Shown here in pieces: positions 1,104 to 8,760 of a DNA stretch of 11,069 bases (position 1 is the stretch's first letter; each line of letters starts with the position of its first letter). The DNA is taken from IMG/VR virus record IMGVR_UViG_2585427777_000015, one strand, 5' to 3'. The position numbers and the translations under genes were made by a program. The stretch comes from a virus (taxonomy: Duplodnaviria > Heunggongvirae > Uroviricota > Caudoviricetes). The notes under the pieces are model-generated. The model worked only from the letters and a program-made list of their open reading frames with translations, did no database searches and was not told where the DNA came from.

Positions 1104-4100
1104 TCAGCTAATCGTGATGCCTGCAGTGGCTTTCTTCATCACCACAACCAGCAAATCGCTGATACTTGCTGTGGGATACCAGTTATTTACCAGCCATGCT
1201 GACACCGAAAACTCCAGTGTCATGTGACCGTGACCGGCAGGCATATCAATAACACCACTGTAAATCAGCGTATTATCCAGCGCGGTACGGTTATAAATTT
1301 CAGCACCGTTTTTCCGCACTATCAGACGGCATGAGGAGTAAATATCAGTATGCTCTTTCTCATGTTTAGCGCCGCTGAATGCCACCGCCGGAATAACAAT
1401 CTGCCGGTCAAACGGCTGATCGTCATAAACCCTGACGGTAATGGTTCCTGATGGCCACCGCTCCGGTGCACGGGAGTCCCGAGGGAAAGCTTTGCCCACT
1501 GTTTTAACGAGATCGCCTTCAATCTGGTTCGCGGACAATTTTCCCAGAACCCGACAGTTCTCGTTAATCGTGACGTTGTTGAGCGTCCCGGAGTTCGCAT
1601 TCACGTTACCGCTGATATCGGCATTTTTCGCCGTCAGCCGCCCGTCCGGTGTCAGGGAAAATGCCGGAGGATTACCGCCGCTGGTAATGGTGGGAGCCGT
1701 CAGATATTTCAGGAACACTTCATTCATAAATATCTGATCGCCCTGACCAACAAACATCGGCTTTGTGTTGCCATTCGCAGGATTAATCATCGCAATCCTG
1801 TCTGCCGCCAGCAGCACCTGACTCTGCATTCCTGCTGGCGTATTCTCAATACCGGCACCGATACCCGCAATATAAAGGCGTCCGTCCTGCATCTGCTGCA
1901 GTTTCACGGCCCACATGCTGTTCAGGTTATTATTTGTATCAACCTGAACTTTCTGTATCTGCTGGATTGCCGCACTCTGATTTTCCAGTTTTTTATTGAC
2001 GGTCTGCGTGATTTCATTGCTGACATTCGTAATGGACGTCCTGATTTCAGCCAGGTCCGGCGCAAGCTGACCGTTATCAATCTGCGTCCACAGCTCCTGG
2101 GCCAGATGTGTTTTCCCGATTTCTCCTTTGAAAAAATCCAGGTAACCTTCCGCATCATCGCTCGCCCGACCGACAGCCTCCACGAATGCCGATTTGCCAA
2201 CAGTATTCACACTGCGGATATAAAAATAATAATCATGGCCCGGCTTGATATTGATACTGGCAGCTATCCAGTACAGCGCCGAGCCAAGATAGCGGGCTGC
2301 GGTTTCAACCTGCCTGATATCCGCAATCCGCTTTTCTGAGAACCAGAACTCAAACTGTACCGTCGGATCATAAACGGCAAGATACGGCGTGGCGGTTATC
2401 TGAAAATAGCCCGGCGTCAGCTCAATCCGCGACGGCGCTGCCGGTGCGGCAATCCGGAACGATACCGATGCCGGATCGCCCTGCTGCCCCCAGGCATTTG
2501 CCGCCCGGACTGTCAGCCTGTAGTTCCCTGGCGCCAGTTGCGTGAAGCGGTATGTGGTTTCCGTCGTCCTGGCCGTGCTGACCAGCCGCTCACTGCCATC
2601 ATCCGCTGCCACGGTCAGGCGAAGCAGGAAGCTCACGCCCTTCACCACCTTCGGCGTGTCCCAGCGGGCCAGTACCTGATACTCCCCGCTGTCTGCGGTG
2701 ACTTCGGCAGTCAGGTGCTGCACCGCTGGCGGCGTGACACCATTCACCGTGCCGCTCTGGTCGCCGTCAAAGTGCGCCCCGTTATCCACGATGGCTTCTT
2801 TTTCCGGTACATGCTGCACGGCGGTGATGGCATACGTGCCGTCATCGTTCTCACGGATACTCACGCAGCGGAACAGGCGCTGGCGCAGCGTCGGCAGCTT
2901 CAGCCCCCACACGCTGTATTCGGCAACGCCGTCAGGAACACGGCTCACTTTCACCTTCACGCCGTCGGTGACGGACTGGACCTCCACGCTGACCGGATTC
3001 CCCTGTCCGTCAACCAGGCTTATCAGCGTGGTGCCGGAGGATGGCAGCGTGATTTCACGGTCGAGCGTCAGCGTCCGGGTCTGGCTGTTTACCGCCAGCA
3101 CGCGCCCGCCGGTGCTGATACCGGCATAGTCATCATCACAGATTTCAATGACATCGCCCGGCACATGGCGAAGCCCTTCTGCGCCGACGCTGAAATCCAC
3201 GGTCTGCGTTTCCAGCAGTTCTGTTTTAATCAGCCACAGCCCGGCGCGGTGTGCCTGCCCCCGACTGGTACAGCCAAAGGCATCCATCTTCGTGACGTTA
3301 CGACCGTAACGGGCAATGGCCTGCGTGTCCTCCACAAGCTCTGTCGCCGTCTCCCAGCCGTTATCCGGGTCAATCCAGTTCACCTCAACGGCATTATGGC
3401 GGTCCTTCAGGGCGCTGAAGCTGTAGCGGAACGGCGCGCCATCATCCGGCATCACCACATTACTGCGGTTATAGGTCCACACCTTATCCGACGGTCGGTC
3501 CTGCACGAACGTCAGCGTCTGCCCGTTCCATACCGGCATACAGCGCATCGCCGAGCAGAAATCACTGAGCACATCCCACGCCTTGCGCTGTGTGGTCAGG
3601 TAAGCGTTACAGGTGATGCGCGGCTCCGTGCCACCAAAGCCATCCGGCACTGACTGGTCGCAGTACTGGCCGATGACATACAGCGCCCATTTATCCACAT
3701 CCGCCGCACCAAGACGTTTCCCCATGCCGTAGCGCGGGTGGGTCAGCATATCCCACAGACACCATGCCATGTTGTTGCTGTATGCTGGCTTAAACGTTCC
3801 GTCCCAGATACCGCTGTATTGCCGCGTCTGCGGGTTATAGTTCGACGGCACCTGCAGAATGCGCCCGCGAAGATGATAATTACGGCTCACCTGCTGGCTG
3901 CCGAACTGCTCCGAGTCCACCTGCACGCCGACCAGTGCCGTGTTCGGGTAGCACTGTTTCACATCGATGATTTCGGTGTATGACGACCAGAGCGTTTTGT
4001 TCTGCAGCTGGTCTGTGGTGCTGTCCGGCGTCATCCTGCGCATCCGGATATTAAACGGGCGCGGCGGCAGGTTACCCACCACCACCGAGGCCAGATACTG

Positions 4101-4583
4101 TGAGGTGGTTTTGCCTTTAATGGTGATGTCTTTTTCCGTCACCCAGCCACCGTTACGTTGTATCTGAACCAGCAGGCGGACTTCCGACGGATTCCGGTCC
4201 CCCTTTGAGGTGGTTTCCACCAGAGCCTGCACACCGAAGGTAAAGCGCAGACGGTCGATGTTTGCCGACGTGATGGTCCGGGTGATCGGCGTGTCATATT
4301 TCACTTCCGTACCCAGCACCGTCTCGGAACCGGAGGATTCAAATCCCTCCGGCGGTGTCTGCTCCTGCTCACCTGCCCGGAACACCACCGTGACACCGGA
4401 GATGTTGGTATTCCCCTCACTGTCCAGCACCGGTGTACTGTTCAGCAGCACGCTTTTTAATCCATCCACCGGACCTTCAATCGGCCCTTCGCTGATGGCA
4501 TCGATCACACTCAGTAATTGCGTGGATTTCAGGTTGTCCTTCGCTTCGCGCGGGGTATGCCCCTTACTGCTTCCTTTACCCAT
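1104..4583 (-). CDS. J: Tail tip fibre / host specificity protein J (central tail fibre, receptor-binding)
   Basis: 1159-aa ORF starting [54 protein letters not shown], the lambda gpJ N-terminus as I recall it; size (lambda J about 1132 aa) and position between I and lom agree. SD GGAG/GAGGA upstream of ATG at 4583. Confidence 0.95.
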
Positions 4584-4596
4584 TCCTCACACTCCA

Positions 4597-4625
4597 TAAA
4601 CAACAAAGCCGCCCAAAAGGCGGCT
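4597..4625 (-). terminator. Putative terminator downstream of the lipoprotein moron, immediately upstream of J
   Basis: Minus-strand hairpin AGCCGCC-TTTTG-GGCGGCT (plus 4607-4625) followed by TTGTTGTTTATGG (U-rich but interrupted). Confidence 0.45.
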
Positions 4626-4649
4626 CATGAGTTACAGCAGGATTAACTA

Positions 4650-4988
4650 TTATTTACATGCATTAACACTATCAGCAAAAATTTTTGGCGTTAATGCTGG
4701 TACACGTTCATAAAGAGTAAAACTACTGCCATTTCCTGCTTTTTTGATATCAAGCACAACATCATATCCCCCCATAGCCTGTGGAACTAAAAGGCTTACC
4801 CCATTCTCAATAGGAAGGGATGTTATAGGTGTTCCATTACCAGTCCATTGTCTGGATATGCAGCCTGACAATTCATCAATATTTTTTAATGAATTACCTT
4901 CCATTACAGGTTTTCCGGATTTTACGTAATCCAAAGATTTACATCCTGTTAAGGCAATAATCGTGCAGAATAAAATCGTTTTGTTCAT
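4650..4988 (-). CDS. Small predicted lipoprotein (about 112 aa), moron inserted between I and J; function unknown
   Basis: ORF with probable ATG start at 4988-4986 (the track's longer ORF starts at an upstream TTG). N-terminus MNKTILFCTIIALTGC is a lipoprotein signal peptide with lipobox LTGC. Region 4630-5060 is visibly AT-rich against GC-rich tail genes. Lambda has only about 60 nt between I and J. Confidence 0.6.
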   Translation of the reverse strand: MNKTILFCTIIALTGCKSLDYVKSGKPVMEGNSLKNIDELSGCISRQWTGNGTPITSLPIENGVSLLVPQAMGGYDVVLDIKKAGNGSSFTLYERVPALTPKIFADSVNACK

Positions 4989-5060
4989 ATAGCTAACCAA
5001 TAGAATAATTATCAGTGTTCGATATAAATATTAAATCAGTTAGAACATGAGTAAATAATA

Positions 5061-5702
5061 TTACCGCCCAATTACCACAACCTGACCACCATCCCCTTCA
5101 TCTGCCGTGCTGATCTCCTGAGATGCCACACGTGACCCCACGCGCATTTCACCGTACAGAACAGGCAGGACATTGCCCTGGGCAACCATGTTATCCAGTG
5201 AGGAGAAATAGGTGTTCTGTTTGCCGTTATCCGTTGTCTGTGTACGTGGAGTTTTGGGTTTAGGGGCCAGCATCTGTGCGACACCACCAAGCGTCATCGC
5301 TGCCCCCATAGAAAAGAGAATGTTACTGAAAGCGATACTGATTCCTGGCATCCAGATTGCCGTAGCAATCAGCGCCGCACCCAGCACTGCCTGAAAAACA
5401 CCACCACTTTTGGCACCCGCCAGACGCGGTACGATGTGGATCACGGCACCATTTGCCAGCGGCTCATTAAGACGGGATGATAATTCGGTTTCTCCTGCAT
5501 CCCGCCCGGCAATCCGTACCTGATACCAGCCATCGCTCAGTTTCTGACGAAACGCCGGGAGCTGTGTGGCCAGTGCGCGGATGGCTTCAGCCCCCGTTTT
5601 CACACGAAGGTCGATGCGGCGGCCAAATCGTTGCAAATCCCCGTAAAGGCAGATGCGTGCCATGCCCGGTGACGCCAGAGGGAGTGTGTGCGTCGCTGCC
5701 AT
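5061..5702 (-). CDS. I: Tail tip assembly protein I
   Basis: 213-aa ORF MAATHTLPLASPGMARICLYGDLQRFGRRIDLRVKTGAEAIRALATQLPAF... matching lambda gpI as recalled; its 5' end overlaps the 3' end of K by about 100 nt in another frame, as in lambda. Confidence 0.9.
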   Translation of the reverse strand: MAATHTLPLASPGMARICLYGDLQRFGRRIDLRVKTGAEAIRALATQLPAFRQKLSDGWYQVRIAGRDAGETELSSRLNEPLANGAVIHIVPRLAGAKSGGVFQAVLGAALIATAIWMPGISIAFSNILFSMGAAMTLGGVAQMLAPKPKTPRTQTTDNGKQNTYFSSLDNMVAQGNVLPVLYGEMRVGSRVASQEISTADEGDGGQVVVIGR

Positions 5703-6343
5703 TTGTCGGTGTACCTCTCTCGTTTGCTCAGTTGTTCAGGAATATGGTGCAGCAGCTCGCCGTCACCACAGTAAATGGCGGCATGATTCGGCACCGATGA
5801 ACCAAAACAGCACAGCAGCACATCGCCCGGCTGCGCCTCTGTCAGTGCGACACGGTAAAAACCAGTAGCCTCCATATTGTCAAGATAGAGATTCTGACCG
5901 TGACGCCACCAGTCATCCCCGCGATGAAAATTCGGCATCTCAATCCCCGCCAGATGATAAGCATCCCGGAACAGCGTGTAACAGTCCGTCACCCCGTGCT
6001 CAAAGCGCCGCCCGGTGAGATGCGGCACACAGCGGAACTTATGAATCGCCCCCCGGCAGACCAGCCACCACGGCAAATCACTCTGCACCTGCAGCCGCCG
6101 GTCAGCCTCACTCAGCCAGGGCAGACCACCGGGGTGGCTGTGGACCAGCGCCACAATCTCACCCTGCATTTCTGCCTGCAGCCAGTCCTCCGGAGCCATC
6201 CGGAAATAATCCTCCGGCTCACCGGAAATATTCACGCCGGGAAAATATCTTTCCCCCTCCGGCGCTCTCACCACGAAGCCGCACGACTCCGCTGGCGCAC
6301 ATCGCCGGGCGTGCGCCAGAATCGCTGATTCTGTCTCTGTCAT
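5600..6343 (-). CDS. K: Tail tip assembly protein K (JAMM/MPN + NlpC/P60 two-domain protein)
   Basis: Start taken at ATG 6343-6341 (MTETESAILAHARRCAPAESCGF...), 4 nt after the L stop; the track's longer ORF begins inside L. JAMM-like motif VHSHPGGLPWLSEAD and NlpC/P60-like Cys/His region (GVTDCYTLF ... NHAAIY) are visible. Confidence 0.9.
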   Translation of the reverse strand: MTETESAILAHARRCAPAESCGFVVRAPEGERYFPGVNISGEPEDYFRMAPEDWLQAEMQGEIVALVHSHPGGLPWLSEADRRLQVQSDLPWWLVCRGAIHKFRCVPHLTGRRFEHGVTDCYTLFRDAYHLAGIEMPNFHRGDDWWRHGQNLYLDNMEATGFYRVALTEAQPGDVLLCCFGSSVPNHAAIYCGDGELLHHIPEQLSKRERYTDKWQRRTHSLWRHRAWHASAFTGICNDLAAASTFV

Positions 6344-6347
6344 GGGA

Positions 6348-7046
6348 TTACTGCGAAAGTTTGTTAATGGAAAGGAAGCCGCCAAAGTTGCCGACGTTAT
6401 TGCGAAACTTACAGCCGCTCAGGCATTTGCTGCATTTATCCTTCGTGATATCGGACGTCGGCTGGTCATATTCATCCGCGACTGCCGGACCGTGATAACC
6501 GCACTCATCACCGCGATAGGTCCAGGTGCAGGTGTTGGCCAGCATGATACGCCCCGGAAAAACAGCGCCATCCGTTTCCGTCGGCGTGGACAGTACAAAG
6601 GAGGCACTCACCGCGCTCAGTTCGCTGCACTGCTCGATGCGCCAGCGGCTGATCACCTCCTGCTCCGGATCGGCGTCACTGTTTCCGTTGACGAAGTTCA
6701 CCGCATCCAGAAAACGGGCGTAAACCTTACGCCGAACCACCGTTCCGCCGACCAGACTCTGCAGATCTTCCGCCATCCCGGTGACCATACCGTACAGGTT
6801 AGAAACCGTCAGCGTGGGGCGCGTACTGGTGCCTTTGCCATTCAGTTCAAAACCACTCCCCTGAATGGGATACGGCTGATACTGTCGCCCCTGCCAGGTG
6901 ACCGGCTCACCTTTTTCGTTCTGCTCATTACAGAAAAAATAACGTTCTCCACCGACCTCTGTCAGGTCGATTTCCCAGAGCACCACGCTGGCCGACTGCT
7001 CCGCACGGGTGCATTCATTCAGTGTTTCCTGCCGGATATCCTGCAT
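6348..7046 (-). CDS. L: Tail tip protein L
   Basis: 232-aa ORF, same length as lambda gpL; C-terminal cysteine cluster (CTWTYRGDECGY ... CSKCLSGCKF) consistent with the Fe-S binding region of gpL. Start ATG overlaps the M stop by 1 nt, as in lambda. Confidence 0.9.
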   Translation of the reverse strand: MQDIRQETLNECTRAEQSASVVLWEIDLTEVGGERYFFCNEQNEKGEPVTWQGRQYQPYPIQGSGFELNGKGTSTRPTLTVSNLYGMVTGMAEDLQSLVGGTVVRRKVYARFLDAVNFVNGNSDADPEQEVISRWRIEQCSELSAVSASFVLSTPTETDGAVFPGRIMLANTCTWTYRGDECGYHGPAVADEYDQPTSDITKDKCSKCLSGCKFRNNVGNFGGFLSINKLSQ

Positions 7047-7378
7047 CAGTTCACCACCTGTTCAAACTCTGCGCTGAACTCAACACGCAGCATACTGACC
7101 CGCGACGACCATTTTGCGCAGGTCACCTTTATCTGCCGCCACTCATAAGGCGGCGTCCACAGAAAGGCTTTCCAGCCCCCGTGCTCTTCCAGAAACGACT
7201 CCAGTACCGTGGCCTCCTCACGGGGGACAGAAAGCGTCACGCTGTACGTTTTCAGGTTGGCATTCAGCCCGGCAGGCGCTCGCTGAGAATAGCCATCACC
7301 AAAGCGCACCTTTCTTACAGAAGGGGCCGAAGCCACATCCATACCGGGTTTCACTTTCCAGCGGAAGGTCTTCATCAT
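7046..7378 (-). CDS. M: Tail tip protein M
   Basis: 110-aa ORF MMKTFRWKVKPGMDV... matching lambda gpM size and position; ATG overlaps the H stop (ATGA). Confidence 0.9.
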   Translation of the reverse strand: MMKTFRWKVKPGMDVASAPSVRKVRFGDGYSQRAPAGLNANLKTYSVTLSVPREEATVLESFLEEHGGWKAFLWTPPYEWRQIKVTCAKWSSRVSMLRVEFSAEFEQVVN

Positions 7379-7620
7379 CCACCTCCGGAGAACAGACCAC
7401 CATCGCGCATCTGTGCCTGAATTTCATCACGGGCACCCTTGCGGGCCATGTCATACACTGCCTTCATCATCTGTGGACCTGGCAGACCATTCGTACCGTC
7501 GTTCTGAATCACCACGTGATTGTTCTGATTAAAATTAATGCCTTCAGCCCGCCGCATCTGCGCCGGACTTCCGGCACCGCCCACATAACCACCTTCCGCA
7601 TATATGCACCATATACCACT
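7375..7620 (-). pseudogene. H: 3'-terminal remnant (about 80 codons) of tape-measure gene H
   Basis: Frame open from an in-frame stop at 7621-7623 to the TGA at 7377-7375; translation ...GGAGSPAQMRRAEGINFNQNNHVVIQNDGTNGLPGPQMMKAVYDMARKGARDEIQAQMRDGGLFSGGG resembles the lambda gpH C-terminus and has the classic 4-nt overlap with M. A full H would be about 850 codons; the upstream sequence is an unrelated gene. Confidence 0.8.
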
Positions 7621-8507
7621 TCATATTGCGTACCGTGTTCTTGTTTCCACGCGTATGTCGTGTCGCCACAAATCCAGGGGACTGATGCCGGACTTCCACC
7701 GTGACACTGCGCCGCCAGCCCGGCAAGGTCAGCACGGAACTGCTGTACCATTGCAAGAAATGCTGCTGGCTGCTGGGCGTAACTGGCATTCGTCATATCG
7801 AATTCCCCCTGCATCCAGCATATCGCCAGCAAAACGTTTTTCGGGTTTTTCTGCAATGCTGCCTTCGTGCGGAAAAGCAGATCCTGATATAACGGCTTAC
7901 CCACTCCCCAGCGAGCCGAATCCTGACTGGCTCCCGTGGACTCGCTGAATGTCCCCTCCGTGCCCTGGGTGAATGCCGAACCACCACGACAGCATGGTAC
8001 CAGCAGGATCCCCGCATTATTAGGGATATACGGAAGCAGTTTTTTGGCAATATGTAAGCCCTGTCCGACACAGCCGTACTGCCCTTTGCTCAGGTCAGCC
8101 CGGGGATGGTTAATCGTACTCATATCCTGAACATCATGCAGACAATGGTCAGCAGGAATGATGTCGTTAAATACGCATACTTCACCACCGGGAGTCACTG
8201 TGTTACGACGGGCCAGTTGCTTAATGCGCGGATGGGGCGCATCGTATGAATCCGGAAGCGGAAGCCCTTCACCGTAAGCCATGGCATTGGATTGCCCGGC
8301 CAGTACGATGACGTAGTACCACTCCGGCTCAGTTGCACCACTGACGACCACATCACCTTCTGCTGCAATCGCCTGCATCAGGGTATAAGGGGTTATGGCC
8401 ACCGGACTACCAAACGGCTGCCAGCCCTCCTTCAGTTTTTGTGTCAGTCGTTTCGCAAGGTCTGACGGCGATGCCGCCCTGACCACGTCATAGTGTTTAA
8501 ATGCCAT
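7509..8507 (-). CDS. NanS-p-like sialate O-acetylesterase (DUF1737 N-domain + SGNH/SASA esterase), apparently 3'-truncated and fused out of frame to the H remnant
   Basis: Strong SD GGGAGGA before ATG 8507. N-terminus MAFKHYDVVRAASPSDLAKRLTQKLKEGW (DUF1737-like), then VIVLAGQSNAMAYGEGLPLPD...PHPRIKQLAR...ILLVPCCRGGSAFT...CWMQGEFD...WICGDTTYAWK, which tracks E. coli NanS/YjhS as I recall it. Similarity ends near YGAY (about 7602); the last ~30 codons read H-remnant DNA in the wrong frame. Confidence 0.8.
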   Translation of the reverse strand: MAFKHYDVVRAASPSDLAKRLTQKLKEGWQPFGSPVAITPYTLMQAIAAEGDVVVSGATEPEWYYVIVLAGQSNAMAYGEGLPLPDSYDAPHPRIKQLARRNTVTPGGEVCVFNDIIPADHCLHDVQDMSTINHPRADLSKGQYGCVGQGLHIAKKLLPYIPNNAGILLVPCCRGGSAFTQGTEGTFSESTGASQDSARWGVGKPLYQDLLFRTKAALQKNPKNVLLAICWMQGEFDMTNASYAQQPAAFLAMVQQFRADLAGLAAQCHGGSPASVPWICGDTTYAWKQEHGTQYEVVYGAYMRKVVMWAVPEVRRRCGGLKALILIRTITW

Positions 8508-8729: not shown

Positions 8730-8740
8730 GTCCATAAGAA

Positions 8741-8760
8741 AGCCCCTCCGGAGAGGGGCT
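8741..8760. repeat. Perfect 8-bp inverted repeat / hairpin
   Basis: AGCCCCTC-CGGA-GAGGGGCT, a perfect palindrome 12 nt downstream of the 8701-8729 element. Confidence 0.4.

Follow-up and report, generated by a model that had tools for sequence, protein, structure and literature searches.

We found that an 11,069-nt stretch of tailed-phage DNA (the window) carries, between the tail assembly gene I and the host-specificity gene J of a lambda-like prophage, a small inserted gene for a predicted lipoprotein of 112 amino acids. The gene is a moron by the presence/absence definition—it stands between genes that are otherwise adjacent—and its product is, judged by profile and homologue matches, a member of the PHROG 914/phiKO2 gp19/Serratia OS31 p54 family. 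We tentatively propose that it is an outer-membrane accessory lipoprotein conferring envelope-level phage exclusion against siphophages, which would protect the lysogen or infected cell; this is our best explanation, held somewhat short of probable.

The insert between I and J

The locus comprises the following features:

5061–5702, minus strand: tail assembly gene I, the upstream neighbour (stop codon TAA at 5063–5061; Pfam Lambda_tail_I, E = 4.5e-24)
4989–5060, minus strand: AT-rich spacer between I and the lipoprotein ORF (72 nt, GC 0.22)
4650–4988, minus strand: lipoprotein precursor gene, 112 aa (stop codon 4652–4650; ORF and translation)
4635–5060, minus strand: approximate extent of the inserted DNA, ~430 nt relative to 434/PhiR49_1 (alignment of I–J spacers)
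4596–4626, minus strand: intrinsic-terminator-like hairpin with a U-rich tail (stem-loop 4626–4606, tail 4605–4596; terminator scan)
1104–4583, minus strand: host-specificity gene J, the downstream neighbour (ORF and the J annotation of a near-identical E. coli 042 gene)

The I–J spacer spans 477 nt (4584–5060; on the minus strand, the last nucleotide of I is 5061 and the first of J is 4583), compared with 60 nt at the lambda-equivalent coordinates of phage 434 and likewise 60 nt in PhiR49_1, in agreement with the initial annotation, which had put the gap at about 480 nt here and about 60 nt in lambda. The insert, which is absent from 434 and PhiR49_1, runs from immediately past the end of I to just before the hairpin of the slot. 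The GC content of the gene is 0.36 versus 0.57 and 0.59 in the two flanking 2-kb stretches, bearing out the sharp drop relative to the flanking tail genes that had been noted before, and the composition of the insert is foreign to its flanks. Gene I of the window shares ~90% nucleotide identity with the I genes of PhiR49_1, mEp332 and mEp460, and the C-terminal 200 aa of J fall into receptor-binding domain (RBD) cluster 0, the commonest J type beside the lipoprotein gene (clustering of 41 loci). No Rfam RNA family was found within 4584–5060. The prophage of the window is a defective remnant that can no longer make virions, in which the lipoprotein gene is intact; J is closely followed by lom, another moron-type gene for an outer-membrane protein (437–1036; Pfam Ail_Lom, E = 4e-124).

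We applied the Juhala/Hendrix definition of a moron, and found extra DNA between adjacent genes with a composition distinct from that of the flanks. The insert is present in ~349 of 8,774 homologous I–J junctions of complete E. coli genomes (~4%) and absent from ~96%. Relatives occur in many Klebsiella and Enterobacter prophages, and the allele of the window itself is carried by 337 of the 5,426 complete E. coli genomes (~6%); no isolated phage among 50,697 records carried the E. coli allele. Some copies are frameshifted (98 or 37 aa, at 4 of the 41 loci), and further alleles contain internal stops.

The predicted lipoprotein

The ORF listing extends the gene to a TTG at 5000; homologues all start at ATG, so 4988 was used as the start. 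The encoded protein begins with MNKTILFCTIIALTGC, and its signal peptide (residues 1–15) consists of an n-region with Lys3 followed by an 11-residue hydrophobic core. We scored lipoboxes as [LVI][ASTVI][GAS]C within the first ~35 residues together with a positive n-region and a hydrophobic core. Inspection of the 112-aa sequence found all of these features of signal peptidase II substrates, with a canonical LTGC ending in Cys16, and a lipobox is present in 130 of 140 family representatives; the clear lipoprotein signal claimed by the initial annotation is thus upheld. The motif and the other conserved cysteines lie at these positions:

4952–4941, minus strand: lipobox L-T-G-C (Cys16 codon 4943–4941)
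4862–4860, minus strand: codon of conserved Cys43 (homologue alignments)
4658–4656, minus strand: codon of conserved Cys111 (homologue alignments)

By established rules, Cys16 would be lipidated after cleavage by Lsp. In E. coli, Asp at position +2 keeps lipoproteins from outer-membrane sorting (the Lol-avoidance rule). The residue that follows the lipid Cys16 in the window protein is Lys, and Asp at +2 occurs in 0 of the 140 representatives; with Lys rather than Asp at +2, the protein would be expected to be sorted by the Lol pathway to the inner leaflet of the outer membrane. An AF2 model (pLDDT 85.5) suggests a short tether that would hold a compact alpha/beta (helix-grip-like) domain in the periplasm, and a Cys43–Cys111 disulfide probably stabilises this domain.

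The window protein matches PHROG 914 over its full length (E = 1.1e-32; residues 1–112 on profile positions 1–118 of 118). Homologues form 125 clusters at E < 1e-3, nearly all of 105–125 aa, and C16, C43 and C111 are invariant across 45 diverse sequences. Because of this match (E = 1e-32), the 125 homologue clusters, the three invariant cysteines and a dN/dS of 0.08–0.31 (where estimable), we conclude that 4650–4988 on the minus strand is a real accessory gene under purifying selection. The Fraca protein VUF53278 connects the window protein (28% identity, with the lipobox and both further Cys kept) to phiKO2 gp19 (49% identity, E = 2e-25), whose GenBank record already reads 'putative moron gene product'. 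On these alignments, the family is one of uncharacterised lipoproteins of ~112 aa with one lipid Cys and two more invariant Cys; exactly three Cys in the mature part were counted in 110 of the 140 representatives. Two much longer candidate homologues, P0070 (1047 aa) and P0118 (782 aa), were judged spurious, being repetitive sequences with multiple short matches.

Profile searches indicate that this lipoprotein family is absent from Pfam, NCBIfam and PADLOC. The window protein matched no Pfam family at E ≤ 0.1, Lambda_Bor and Ail_Lom included, and the 45 family members gave no Pfam match at E ≤ 0.01 except three isolated single-member matches (E 0.005–0.009) to unrelated or generic families. 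Its sole NCBIfam match was to a VirB7 signal peptide (E = 0.085), the PADLOC anti-phage defence profiles gave 0 families at E ≤ 1, and a sequence profile search of the PDB returned only FlgP, matching at the signal peptide. Literature searches by PHROG number and RefSeq protein accession found nothing. The closest solved fold to the model is Flpp3, a Francisella DUF3568 lipoprotein (Foldseek E = 0.011, TM 0.51), and both Flpp3 and the N-terminal domain of BamC are structural neighbours at about 6–12% identity. The predicted fold is generic, being common to KA1, DUF302 and Bet v 1-like proteins, and justifies no functional inference. Among BFVD viral structures there was one credible relative, an uncharacterised protein of Pseudomonas phage phiAH14a (TM 0.83), and nothing annotated. 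The profile and structure searches, checked also for a structural tail match that would have spoken against an accessory role, gave none; the protein is a predicted lipoprotein, not a tail component.

Tail-operon slots, the hairpin and expression

Within the tail operons of siphophages, the family occupies three intergenic slots or more: T–H in Enterobacter (where HK97 has its exclusion moron gp15), K–I in Klebsiella, phiKO2, Fraca and LMessi, and I–J at all E. coli loci. Klebsiella and Enterobacter orthologues in the other slots share 50–60% identity with the window protein, pointing to a gene that moves among T–H, K–I and I–J; in HK97 these same three slots are annotated as moron slots (gp22/23, gp15). 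In the contexts examined, the gene without exception points the same way as the tail genes and is lower in GC (0.41–0.46 versus 0.44–0.54 in the flanks of orthologous contexts), and in all but one a clear hairpin follows it closely, ahead of the next tail gene.

The hairpin upstream of J (GAGCCGCC-UUU-GGGCGGCUU at 4626–4606, tail UGUUGUUUAU) folds at −16.7 kcal/mol (z = −3.4) and directly abuts the J ribosome-binding site (GGAG...GAGGA ATG). Phages 434 and PhiR49_1, which lack the insert, carry a homologous hairpin with a compensatory G:C to A:U change, and at the T–H slot a hairpin is likewise common to the HK97 gp15 locus and the Enterobacter orthologue locus. These comparisons indicate that the terminator-like hairpins are features of the slots rather than something carried in by the inserted genes. 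The hairpin with a U-rich tail described by the initial annotation is therefore present, as a property of the I–J slot rather than of the moron.

Expression of the gene is less easily read from its upstream spacer, which contains no recognisable Shine-Dalgarno and the following promoter-like pairs:

5055–5050 and 5033–5028, minus strand: weak sigma-70-like hexamers TTTACT and TAATAT, 16 nt between (8/12 match)
5035–5030 and 5013–5008, minus strand: weak sigma-70-like hexamers TTTAAT and GATAAT (8/12 match)

A promoter scan found no minus-strand site at the 9/12 threshold. The spacer holds four 8/12 matches versus 1.15 in composition-preserving shuffles (p ~0.05), a count only marginally above expectation from AT-richness alone. 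The hexamers on which a promoter-like stretch had been proposed are thus present, but at 8/12 they fall below the threshold, in DNA of 22% GC. In orthologous contexts, the gene begins 32–86 nt after the preceding tail gene with no common promoter motif, and several orthologues combine a strong Shine-Dalgarno with a spacer too short to house a promoter; the Klebsiella and phiKO2 copies lie only ~32–36 nt after K, with a good Shine-Dalgarno. Because of these short spacers and Shine-Dalgarno sequences, the orthologues are probably transcribed together with the late genes. At a minimum, expression would come from read-through of the Q-antiterminated late transcript; in the E. coli lineage, the 72-nt spacer may in addition hold a weak promoter for the gene itself. 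The 'classic moron architecture' ascribed to the locus accordingly survives in part: the insertion between adjacent genes and the foreign GC stand, but the promoter matches reach only 8/12 and the hairpin was not brought by the insert.

Function of the lipoprotein

The exclusion that we tentatively favour would start from the predicted lipoprotein tethered at the inner leaflet of the outer membrane, its domain in the periplasm, where it may act on a conserved component of the host envelope or on a conserved post-adsorption step (candidates are insertion of the tail tip, or transit of the DNA across the outer membrane and periplasm). Among small envelope proteins whose genes lie within or next to tail genes, the best studied (gp15, Lpp010, Lpp021 and Cor) are documented to act in exclusion, and Bujak et al. 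(2020) proposed this role in silico for p54 of Serratia phage OS31 (PMC7556043). Between E. coli and Klebsiella/Enterobacter prophages the lipoprotein retains 50–52% aa identity, compared with 29–41% for the flanking tail proteins; such higher conservation would be expected if it contacts a conserved host component. Several observations weigh against exclusion. The protein resembles no proven exclusion protein in sequence or fold, and the E. coli allele was found in none of the 50,697 isolated-phage records. Distant family members lie outside tail operons, in a phage early region and a genomic island, so that the family is not tied to tails and might serve the envelope more generally. Expression in a lysogen is a further difficulty, given the lack of a 9/12 promoter and of a Shine-Dalgarno in the E. 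coli lineage and the little promoter room in orthologues.

A conserved target is favoured over masking of the receptor of the neighbouring J because the allele does not track the receptor-binding end of J. Among the 41 clustered loci, the same allele (98–100% aa identity) occurs with at least four J C-terminal types—93–100%, 68% or 50% identical, or unrelated—and the 50%-identical type is also found without the lipoprotein gene, in PhiR49_1 and Stx2c phages; no co-variation of the allele with the receptor-binding domain of its own receptor-binding protein (RBP) was found. The suggestion of the initial annotation that the lipoprotein masks the specific receptor of the adjacent J, as a functional analogue of Cor or Llp (both FhuA), therefore seems to us distinctly unlikely. 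It would suit a predicted outer-membrane lipoprotein encoded beside a receptor-binding gene, was suggested likewise for OS31 p54 (PMC7556043), and has a parallel in the unrelated lipoprotein beside J of mEp010, which excludes LamB-dependent phages including lambda (PMC11893012). Further evidence nevertheless runs against it, in that the orthologues adjoin K, I or H, not J, Fraca has a separate cor, the likeness to Cor or Lpp010 is confined to the signal peptide, and there is no Llp-like fold. A bolder form of exclusion, which we consider rather unlikely, is a new receptor-independent class of exclusion lipoprotein that would act from the inner face of the outer membrane, either blocking a step common to lambda-like siphophages (such as tail-tip insertion, or passage of the tape measure/DNA across the outer membrane and periplasm) or inactivating the K peptidase of the tail tip. 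Such a mode of action would account for the pairing of a single allele with many J types and for the movement of the gene from one tail-operon slot to another. No lambdoid-phage lipoprotein has been reported to exclude lambda-type phages (PMC11893012), and a member of this class, if true, would be the first one shown to do so.

Explanations other than exclusion start from the same predicted envelope protein. The gene could be a lysogenic-conversion or host-envelope fitness factor, acting in serum resistance, adhesion, or modulation of envelope stress or permeability by the logic of bor and lom; we regard this as a serious minority reading. The presence of lom just downstream of J, the relatives in non-tail contexts including a genomic island, the retention of the gene in defective prophages such as that of the window, and the PDB title of Flpp3 ('F. 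tularensis virulence determinant') all speak for it, but the likeness to the Flpp3 fold is weak, there is no Pfam match to Bor or another family, no minus-strand promoter at 9/12 would support expression in the lysogen, and this reading would not explain why the enterobacterial subfamily favours slots in tail operons. If the protein were made from the late transcript only, it might instead help the lytic cycle, by sparing virions from receptors on lysing cells or debris or by modulating outer-membrane disruption. Its constant co-orientation with the tail genes and the spacing and Shine-Dalgarno after K in Klebsiella and phiKO2, which imply late-gene co-transcription, agree with such a role, and protection of progeny is a known second role of T5 Llp; we nonetheless think it improbable, given that the gene is dispensable (most related phages are without it), that it is intact in a remnant prophage unable to make virions, and that it does not co-vary with the receptor-binding end of J, which argues equally against masking of debris receptors. 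We consider it highly improbable, finally, that the product forms part of the tail tip or helps to assemble it, or that the ORF is non-functional and lies in junk DNA. The position inside the tail-tip gene block and the occasional frameshifted or interrupted copies could be read in that way, but the predicted signal peptide and lipobox would export the protein from cytoplasmic tail assembly, ~96% of homologous junctions do without the gene, no tail-protein similarity was found, and conservation across genera, a dN/dS well below 1 and the three invariant Cys rule out junk.

Exclusion at the envelope, our preferred reading, would if true affect which therapeutic or temperate siphophages infect carrier strains, and would extend the few known lipoprotein exclusion mechanisms by one that is independent of the receptor. 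Should the product be only a bystander in the envelope, the gene would count as an ordinary moron. The mobility among slots and the slot-owned hairpins are usable to find other accessory genes of tail operons.

Comparison with known systems

The nearest parallel in position is HK97 gp15, a moron that is reported (Cumby et al. 2012) to act in superinfection exclusion by blocking DNA entry, and is reportedly an inner-membrane protein by topology. The Enterobacter orthologue, 50% identical to the window protein, lies exactly where gp15 does in HK97, with T and the tape-measure gene on its two sides and the same conserved hairpin following it, and gp15 and the window family are both small envelope proteins dispensable for tail assembly. 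The genomic slot is nevertheless all that they have in common: gp15 has 62 aa and is not a lipoprotein, whereas the window protein is a predicted lipoprotein of 112 aa, and hhalign found no homology to gp15/YebO-like proteins (probability 0.1%). The lambda morons lom and bor are likewise accessory outer-membrane protein genes of the lambdoid late region, with no sequence relation to the 112-aa protein (no Pfam Bor or Ail_Lom match). Across all of these comparisons, no proven exclusion protein was found to resemble the window protein by homology or by fold.

T5 Llp, a FhuA-blocking lipoprotein that has been solved with FhuA, acts from the periplasmic face. Like the window protein it is a lipoprotein encoded beside a receptor-binding protein gene, and no similarity in sequence or fold was found between the two. 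Cor (of phi80, N15, HK022, T1 and mEp167) is an outer-membrane lipoprotein that inactivates FhuA, and shares with the window protein a small size, a prophage origin, predicted outer-membrane location and a place in the tail gene region. Unlike Cor, which acts on FhuA, the window lipoprotein has no association with a given J type; Cor is also shorter (77 aa in Fraca) and encoded downstream of J rather than between I and J. An hhalign comparison with Fraca Cor aligned only 30 columns, covering the signal peptide and lipobox, and found no homology of the mature domain. Fraca encodes both cor and a homologue of the window protein; the two are therefore not redundant there, which neither helps nor hurts exclusion in general.

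Lpp010 and Lpp021 of mEpimmI coliphages were shown experimentally to exclude phages, in the case of Lpp010 the LamB-dependent phages including lambda (PMC11893012). Both are lipoproteins encoded in the structural/tail cluster beside J, as is the window lipoprotein; Lpp010, however, is an 82-aa protein whose gene is on the opposite strand, downstream of J, and its likeness to the window family is confined to the signal peptide. The nearest known system is the family itself, as represented by phiKO2 gp19, Fraca and OS31. The phiKO2 and Fraca genes lie between K and I instead of I and J, and begin after a short spacer with a Shine-Dalgarno instead of a 72-nt AT-rich spacer without one; this family and the window gene nonetheless agree in size, in orientation with the tail operon, in their lower GC and in the hairpin that follows the gene.

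Gene content of the remnant prophage

The prophage in the window is a deletion remnant that lacks all lysis and head genes and most tail genes. Every gene from M to lom lies on the minus strand.

Features of the window (coordinates, strand where assigned, identity)
437–1036, minus, lom (Ail/Lom outer-membrane β-barrel; Pfam Ail_Lom), directly downstream of J
1104–4583, minus, J
4650–4988, minus, 112-aa ORF (LPP)
5061–5702, minus, I (Pfam Lambda_tail_I)
5600–6385, minus, K
6348–7046, minus, L
7046–7378, minus, M
7375–7584, 3′ end of the tape-measure gene (last 69 codons)
7509–8507, truncated NanS-like esterase ORF (DUF1737 + SASA)
8730–8939, minus, STnc100 sRNA (Rfam, 152 bits)
9016–9265, minus, three tRNA genes (Met-CAT, Arg-TCG, Arg-TCT)
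9315–10364, DNA methylase gene (N6_N4_Mtase)

The tape-measure end abuts the esterase gene at a junction near 7602/7603 (within 7375–7620); this contiguous junction was found in 0 of 5,426 complete E. coli genomes, where matches end at 7602. LPP, J and lom are still intact; lom gives the tail module a second accessory gene for an outer-membrane protein. Upstream of the remnant are the three tRNA genes, the sRNA and the methylase gene, with the sRNA and tRNAs between the methylase and esterase genes. Stx-type lambdoid phages usually carry such a set downstream of Q; no stx genes were found beside it here.

An accessory gene for a predicted lipoprotein between I and J

The I–J spacer measures 477 nt in the window versus 60 nt in phage 434 (lambda-equivalent coordinates), and GC content is 0.335–0.40 across 4600–5100 versus 0.52–0.60 on either side (200-nt sliding window); LPP itself has a GC content of 0.36 and its flanks 0.57 and 0.59. 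With both length and GC dip measured, the initial annotation of a spacer far longer than that of lambda, carrying a 112-aa ORF with GC sharply below that of the flanking tail genes, was therefore correct as written. BLAST comparison of 4200–5500 with 50,697 phage records matched many lambdoid phages in which the I and J ends are approximately 90% identical; none of them carries the insert (query coverage, 65%). In complete E. coli genomes the I–J junction was matched at 8,774 places, about 349 of them with the insert. Alignment with the insert-less phages 434 and PhiR49_1 placed its limits at the I stop codon and approximately 4635. LPP is an accessory insert. An unrelated 249-nt insert occupies the same slot in Escherichia phage PhiR12_2 (L006, 684–932), where a hairpin and T-run precede J and no gene is annotated.

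Pfam, NCBIfam and PADLOC yielded no family for the 112-aa protein; PHROG 914 (function unknown) matched it over its full length (E = 1e-32). Of 5,426 complete E. coli genomes, 337 carry LPP DNA at 95–100% identity, with its product annotated as hypothetical; in E. coli 042 the gene is flanked by a tail assembly protein and gpJ in an apparently complete prophage. Homologues with 50–60% identity were found in Klebsiella, Enterobacter, Kluyvera and Jejubacter, and a profile search of 1.8 billion representatives gave 125 homologue clusters, nearly all of 105–125 aa. Only three columns are invariant across 45 diverse members (the lipobox Cys, C43 and C111); among 140 family representatives, 130 have a lipobox, the mature part of 110 contains exactly three Cys and none has Asp at +2. 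Orthologue pairs gave dN/dS values of 0.08–0.31, computed only where dS was unsaturated. The ORF is a real gene. By established rules, Lsp would cleave before Cys16, the protein would be sorted to the outer membrane because it carries no Lol-avoidance Asp, and one disulfide would form in the periplasm. Frameshifts or truncations affect a few E. coli copies, leaving 98 or 37 aa (L063, L064, L065 and L013-type loci), and truncation is also seen in several of the adjacent J genes, a pattern that fits the decay of cryptic prophages.

Family members in three tail-operon slots

Gene order is I–LPP–J in 59/59 E. coli IMG/VR loci, K–LPP–I in Klebsiella prophages (52% identity) and in phages phiKO2 (gp19), Fraca, LMessi and Serratia OS31, and T–LPP–H in HK97-like Enterobacter prophages (50% identity). 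Distant members (24–40% identity) were found in one phage early region and one genomic island. The GenBank record of phiKO2 names gp19 ‘putative moron gene product’, and the annotated morons (add-on genes) of HK97 are gp15 in T–H, and gp22 and gp23 in I–J, which is therefore a known moron hot spot. HK97 also has a small ORF in its 320-nt K–I gap (L087, 5061–5159), encoding 32 aa (MYTVGFGWIFVGIFIGLILWFFINRASVRANR) and followed by an annotated terminator; the product appears to be a single transmembrane helix and is another candidate tiny envelope protein in a tail-operon slot. One IMG/VR prophage (L066, 2063–5970) carries approximately 4 kb of further cargo, mostly opposite-strand ORFs, between K and LPP, so the K–I slot can hold multi-gene cargo.

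A hairpin with a U-tail follows LPP (4626–4596; −16.7 kcal/mol, z = −3.4), as initially annotated, but it does not appear to be a terminator owned by the moron: the 60-nt spacer of insert-less 434 and PhiR49_1 has a homologous hairpin whose stem differs by a compensatory G:C to A:U change. The I–J hairpin belongs to the slot and is there with or without cargo. The T–H slot shows the same arrangement: a conserved hairpin (GACCCGC...GCGGGU7) precedes the tape-measure gene, and immediately 5′ of it sits the LPP orthologue in Enterobacter or, in HK97, the unrelated gp15. Terminator-like hairpins before J or the tape-measure gene lie at 4596–4626 in the window and, in other loci, at 703–722 (L004), 1599–1623 (L092) and approximately 6360–6385 (L084, Enterobacter prophage). 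Across phages they are conserved in empty slots and in slots with differing cargo alike (window versus 434; HK97 gp15 versus Enterobacter LPP), and phiKO2 and HK97 have annotated terminators before I and J even where cargo is absent. In seven of the eight distinct contexts examined, a clear hairpin follows the LPP-family gene and abuts the ribosome-binding site of the tail gene after it; the hairpin of L066 is weak. Apparently these hairpins are fixed ‘landing pads’, with morons being swapped just upstream of them; equally, the lambda/434 I–J hairpin could be what remains of a lost moron.

Upstream of LPP, the promoter-like hexamers of the initial annotation are present, but a promoter is not established: TTTACT-16-TAATAT, noted there, and TTTAAT-16-GATAAT each match at 8/12 positions, and the promoter scan gave no minus-strand promoter of at least 9/12. 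The 72-nt spacer (GC, 0.22) holds four 8/12 matches versus 1.15 in shuffles (p ~0.05). No Shine–Dalgarno sequence precedes the LPP ATG in the window's lineage; orthologues in other slots have good ones, but their spacers are just 32–86 nt long and share no promoter motif. At a minimum LPP is probably read with the late operon; it may also be expressed independently in a lysogen. In L084 (5915–6000, upstream of the orthologue), a CCUCC-N8-GGAGG stem, which the E. coli version lacks, would sequester the LPP Shine–Dalgarno sequence, a possible case of translational control.

Proposed function

From its position beside J, the initial annotation suggested a receptor-masking exclusion lipoprotein like Cor or Llp; this reading was not supported. 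In profile comparisons, the Cor of Fraca (which encodes an LPP-family gene and cor together) aligned with the family in the signal peptide only, as did Lpp010 of mEp010, the only lipoprotein for which experiments have demonstrated exclusion of LamB-dependent phages, lambda among them (PMC11893012). Llp was absent from the structural matches. A receptor-tuned protein should track the receptor-binding domain of its own phage, and LPP does not. When the last 200 aa of J were clustered for 41 loci with complete J, LPP alleles 98–100% identical to that of the window occurred with at least four J clusters: that including the window's own J (25 loci), and others 50% identical (6 loci), 68% identical (3 loci) or without detectable similarity to it (2 loci). 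PhiR49_1 and Stx2c phages, both without LPP, have the 50% J end, and phage 2H10 and Stx2a phages have the 68% one. Recent recombination in J weakens this argument without reversing it, and we regard receptor-specific masking as unlikely.

Cor is an exclusion factor, and HK97 gp15, in the T–H slot, is reportedly another. Lpp010 and Lpp021 are exclusion factors encoded beside J (PMC11893012). Because exclusion is thus the role of the best-studied small envelope proteins in these slots or beside J, our tentative preference, as the likeliest function of LPP, is exclusion of phages at a step that does not depend on the receptor-binding end of J. Across genera, LPP is better conserved than the adjacent tail proteins (50–52% versus 29–41%), which fits contact with a conserved host component. 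A Bor/Lom-like role in host fitness is a less probable but serious alternative; a late-cycle helper seems improbable, and a structural protein or junk very improbable.

Earlier records of the family are the phiKO2 annotation, PHROG 914 and the study of Bujak et al. 2020 (PMC7556043), in which a Cor-like role was suggested for OS31 p54 solely on its position and size. To this we add the three-slot distribution, the slot-resident hairpins, a structural model, the Cys pattern of the whole family and the absence of co-variation between LPP and J. The window locus adds a member, in a new slot, to a known type of element.
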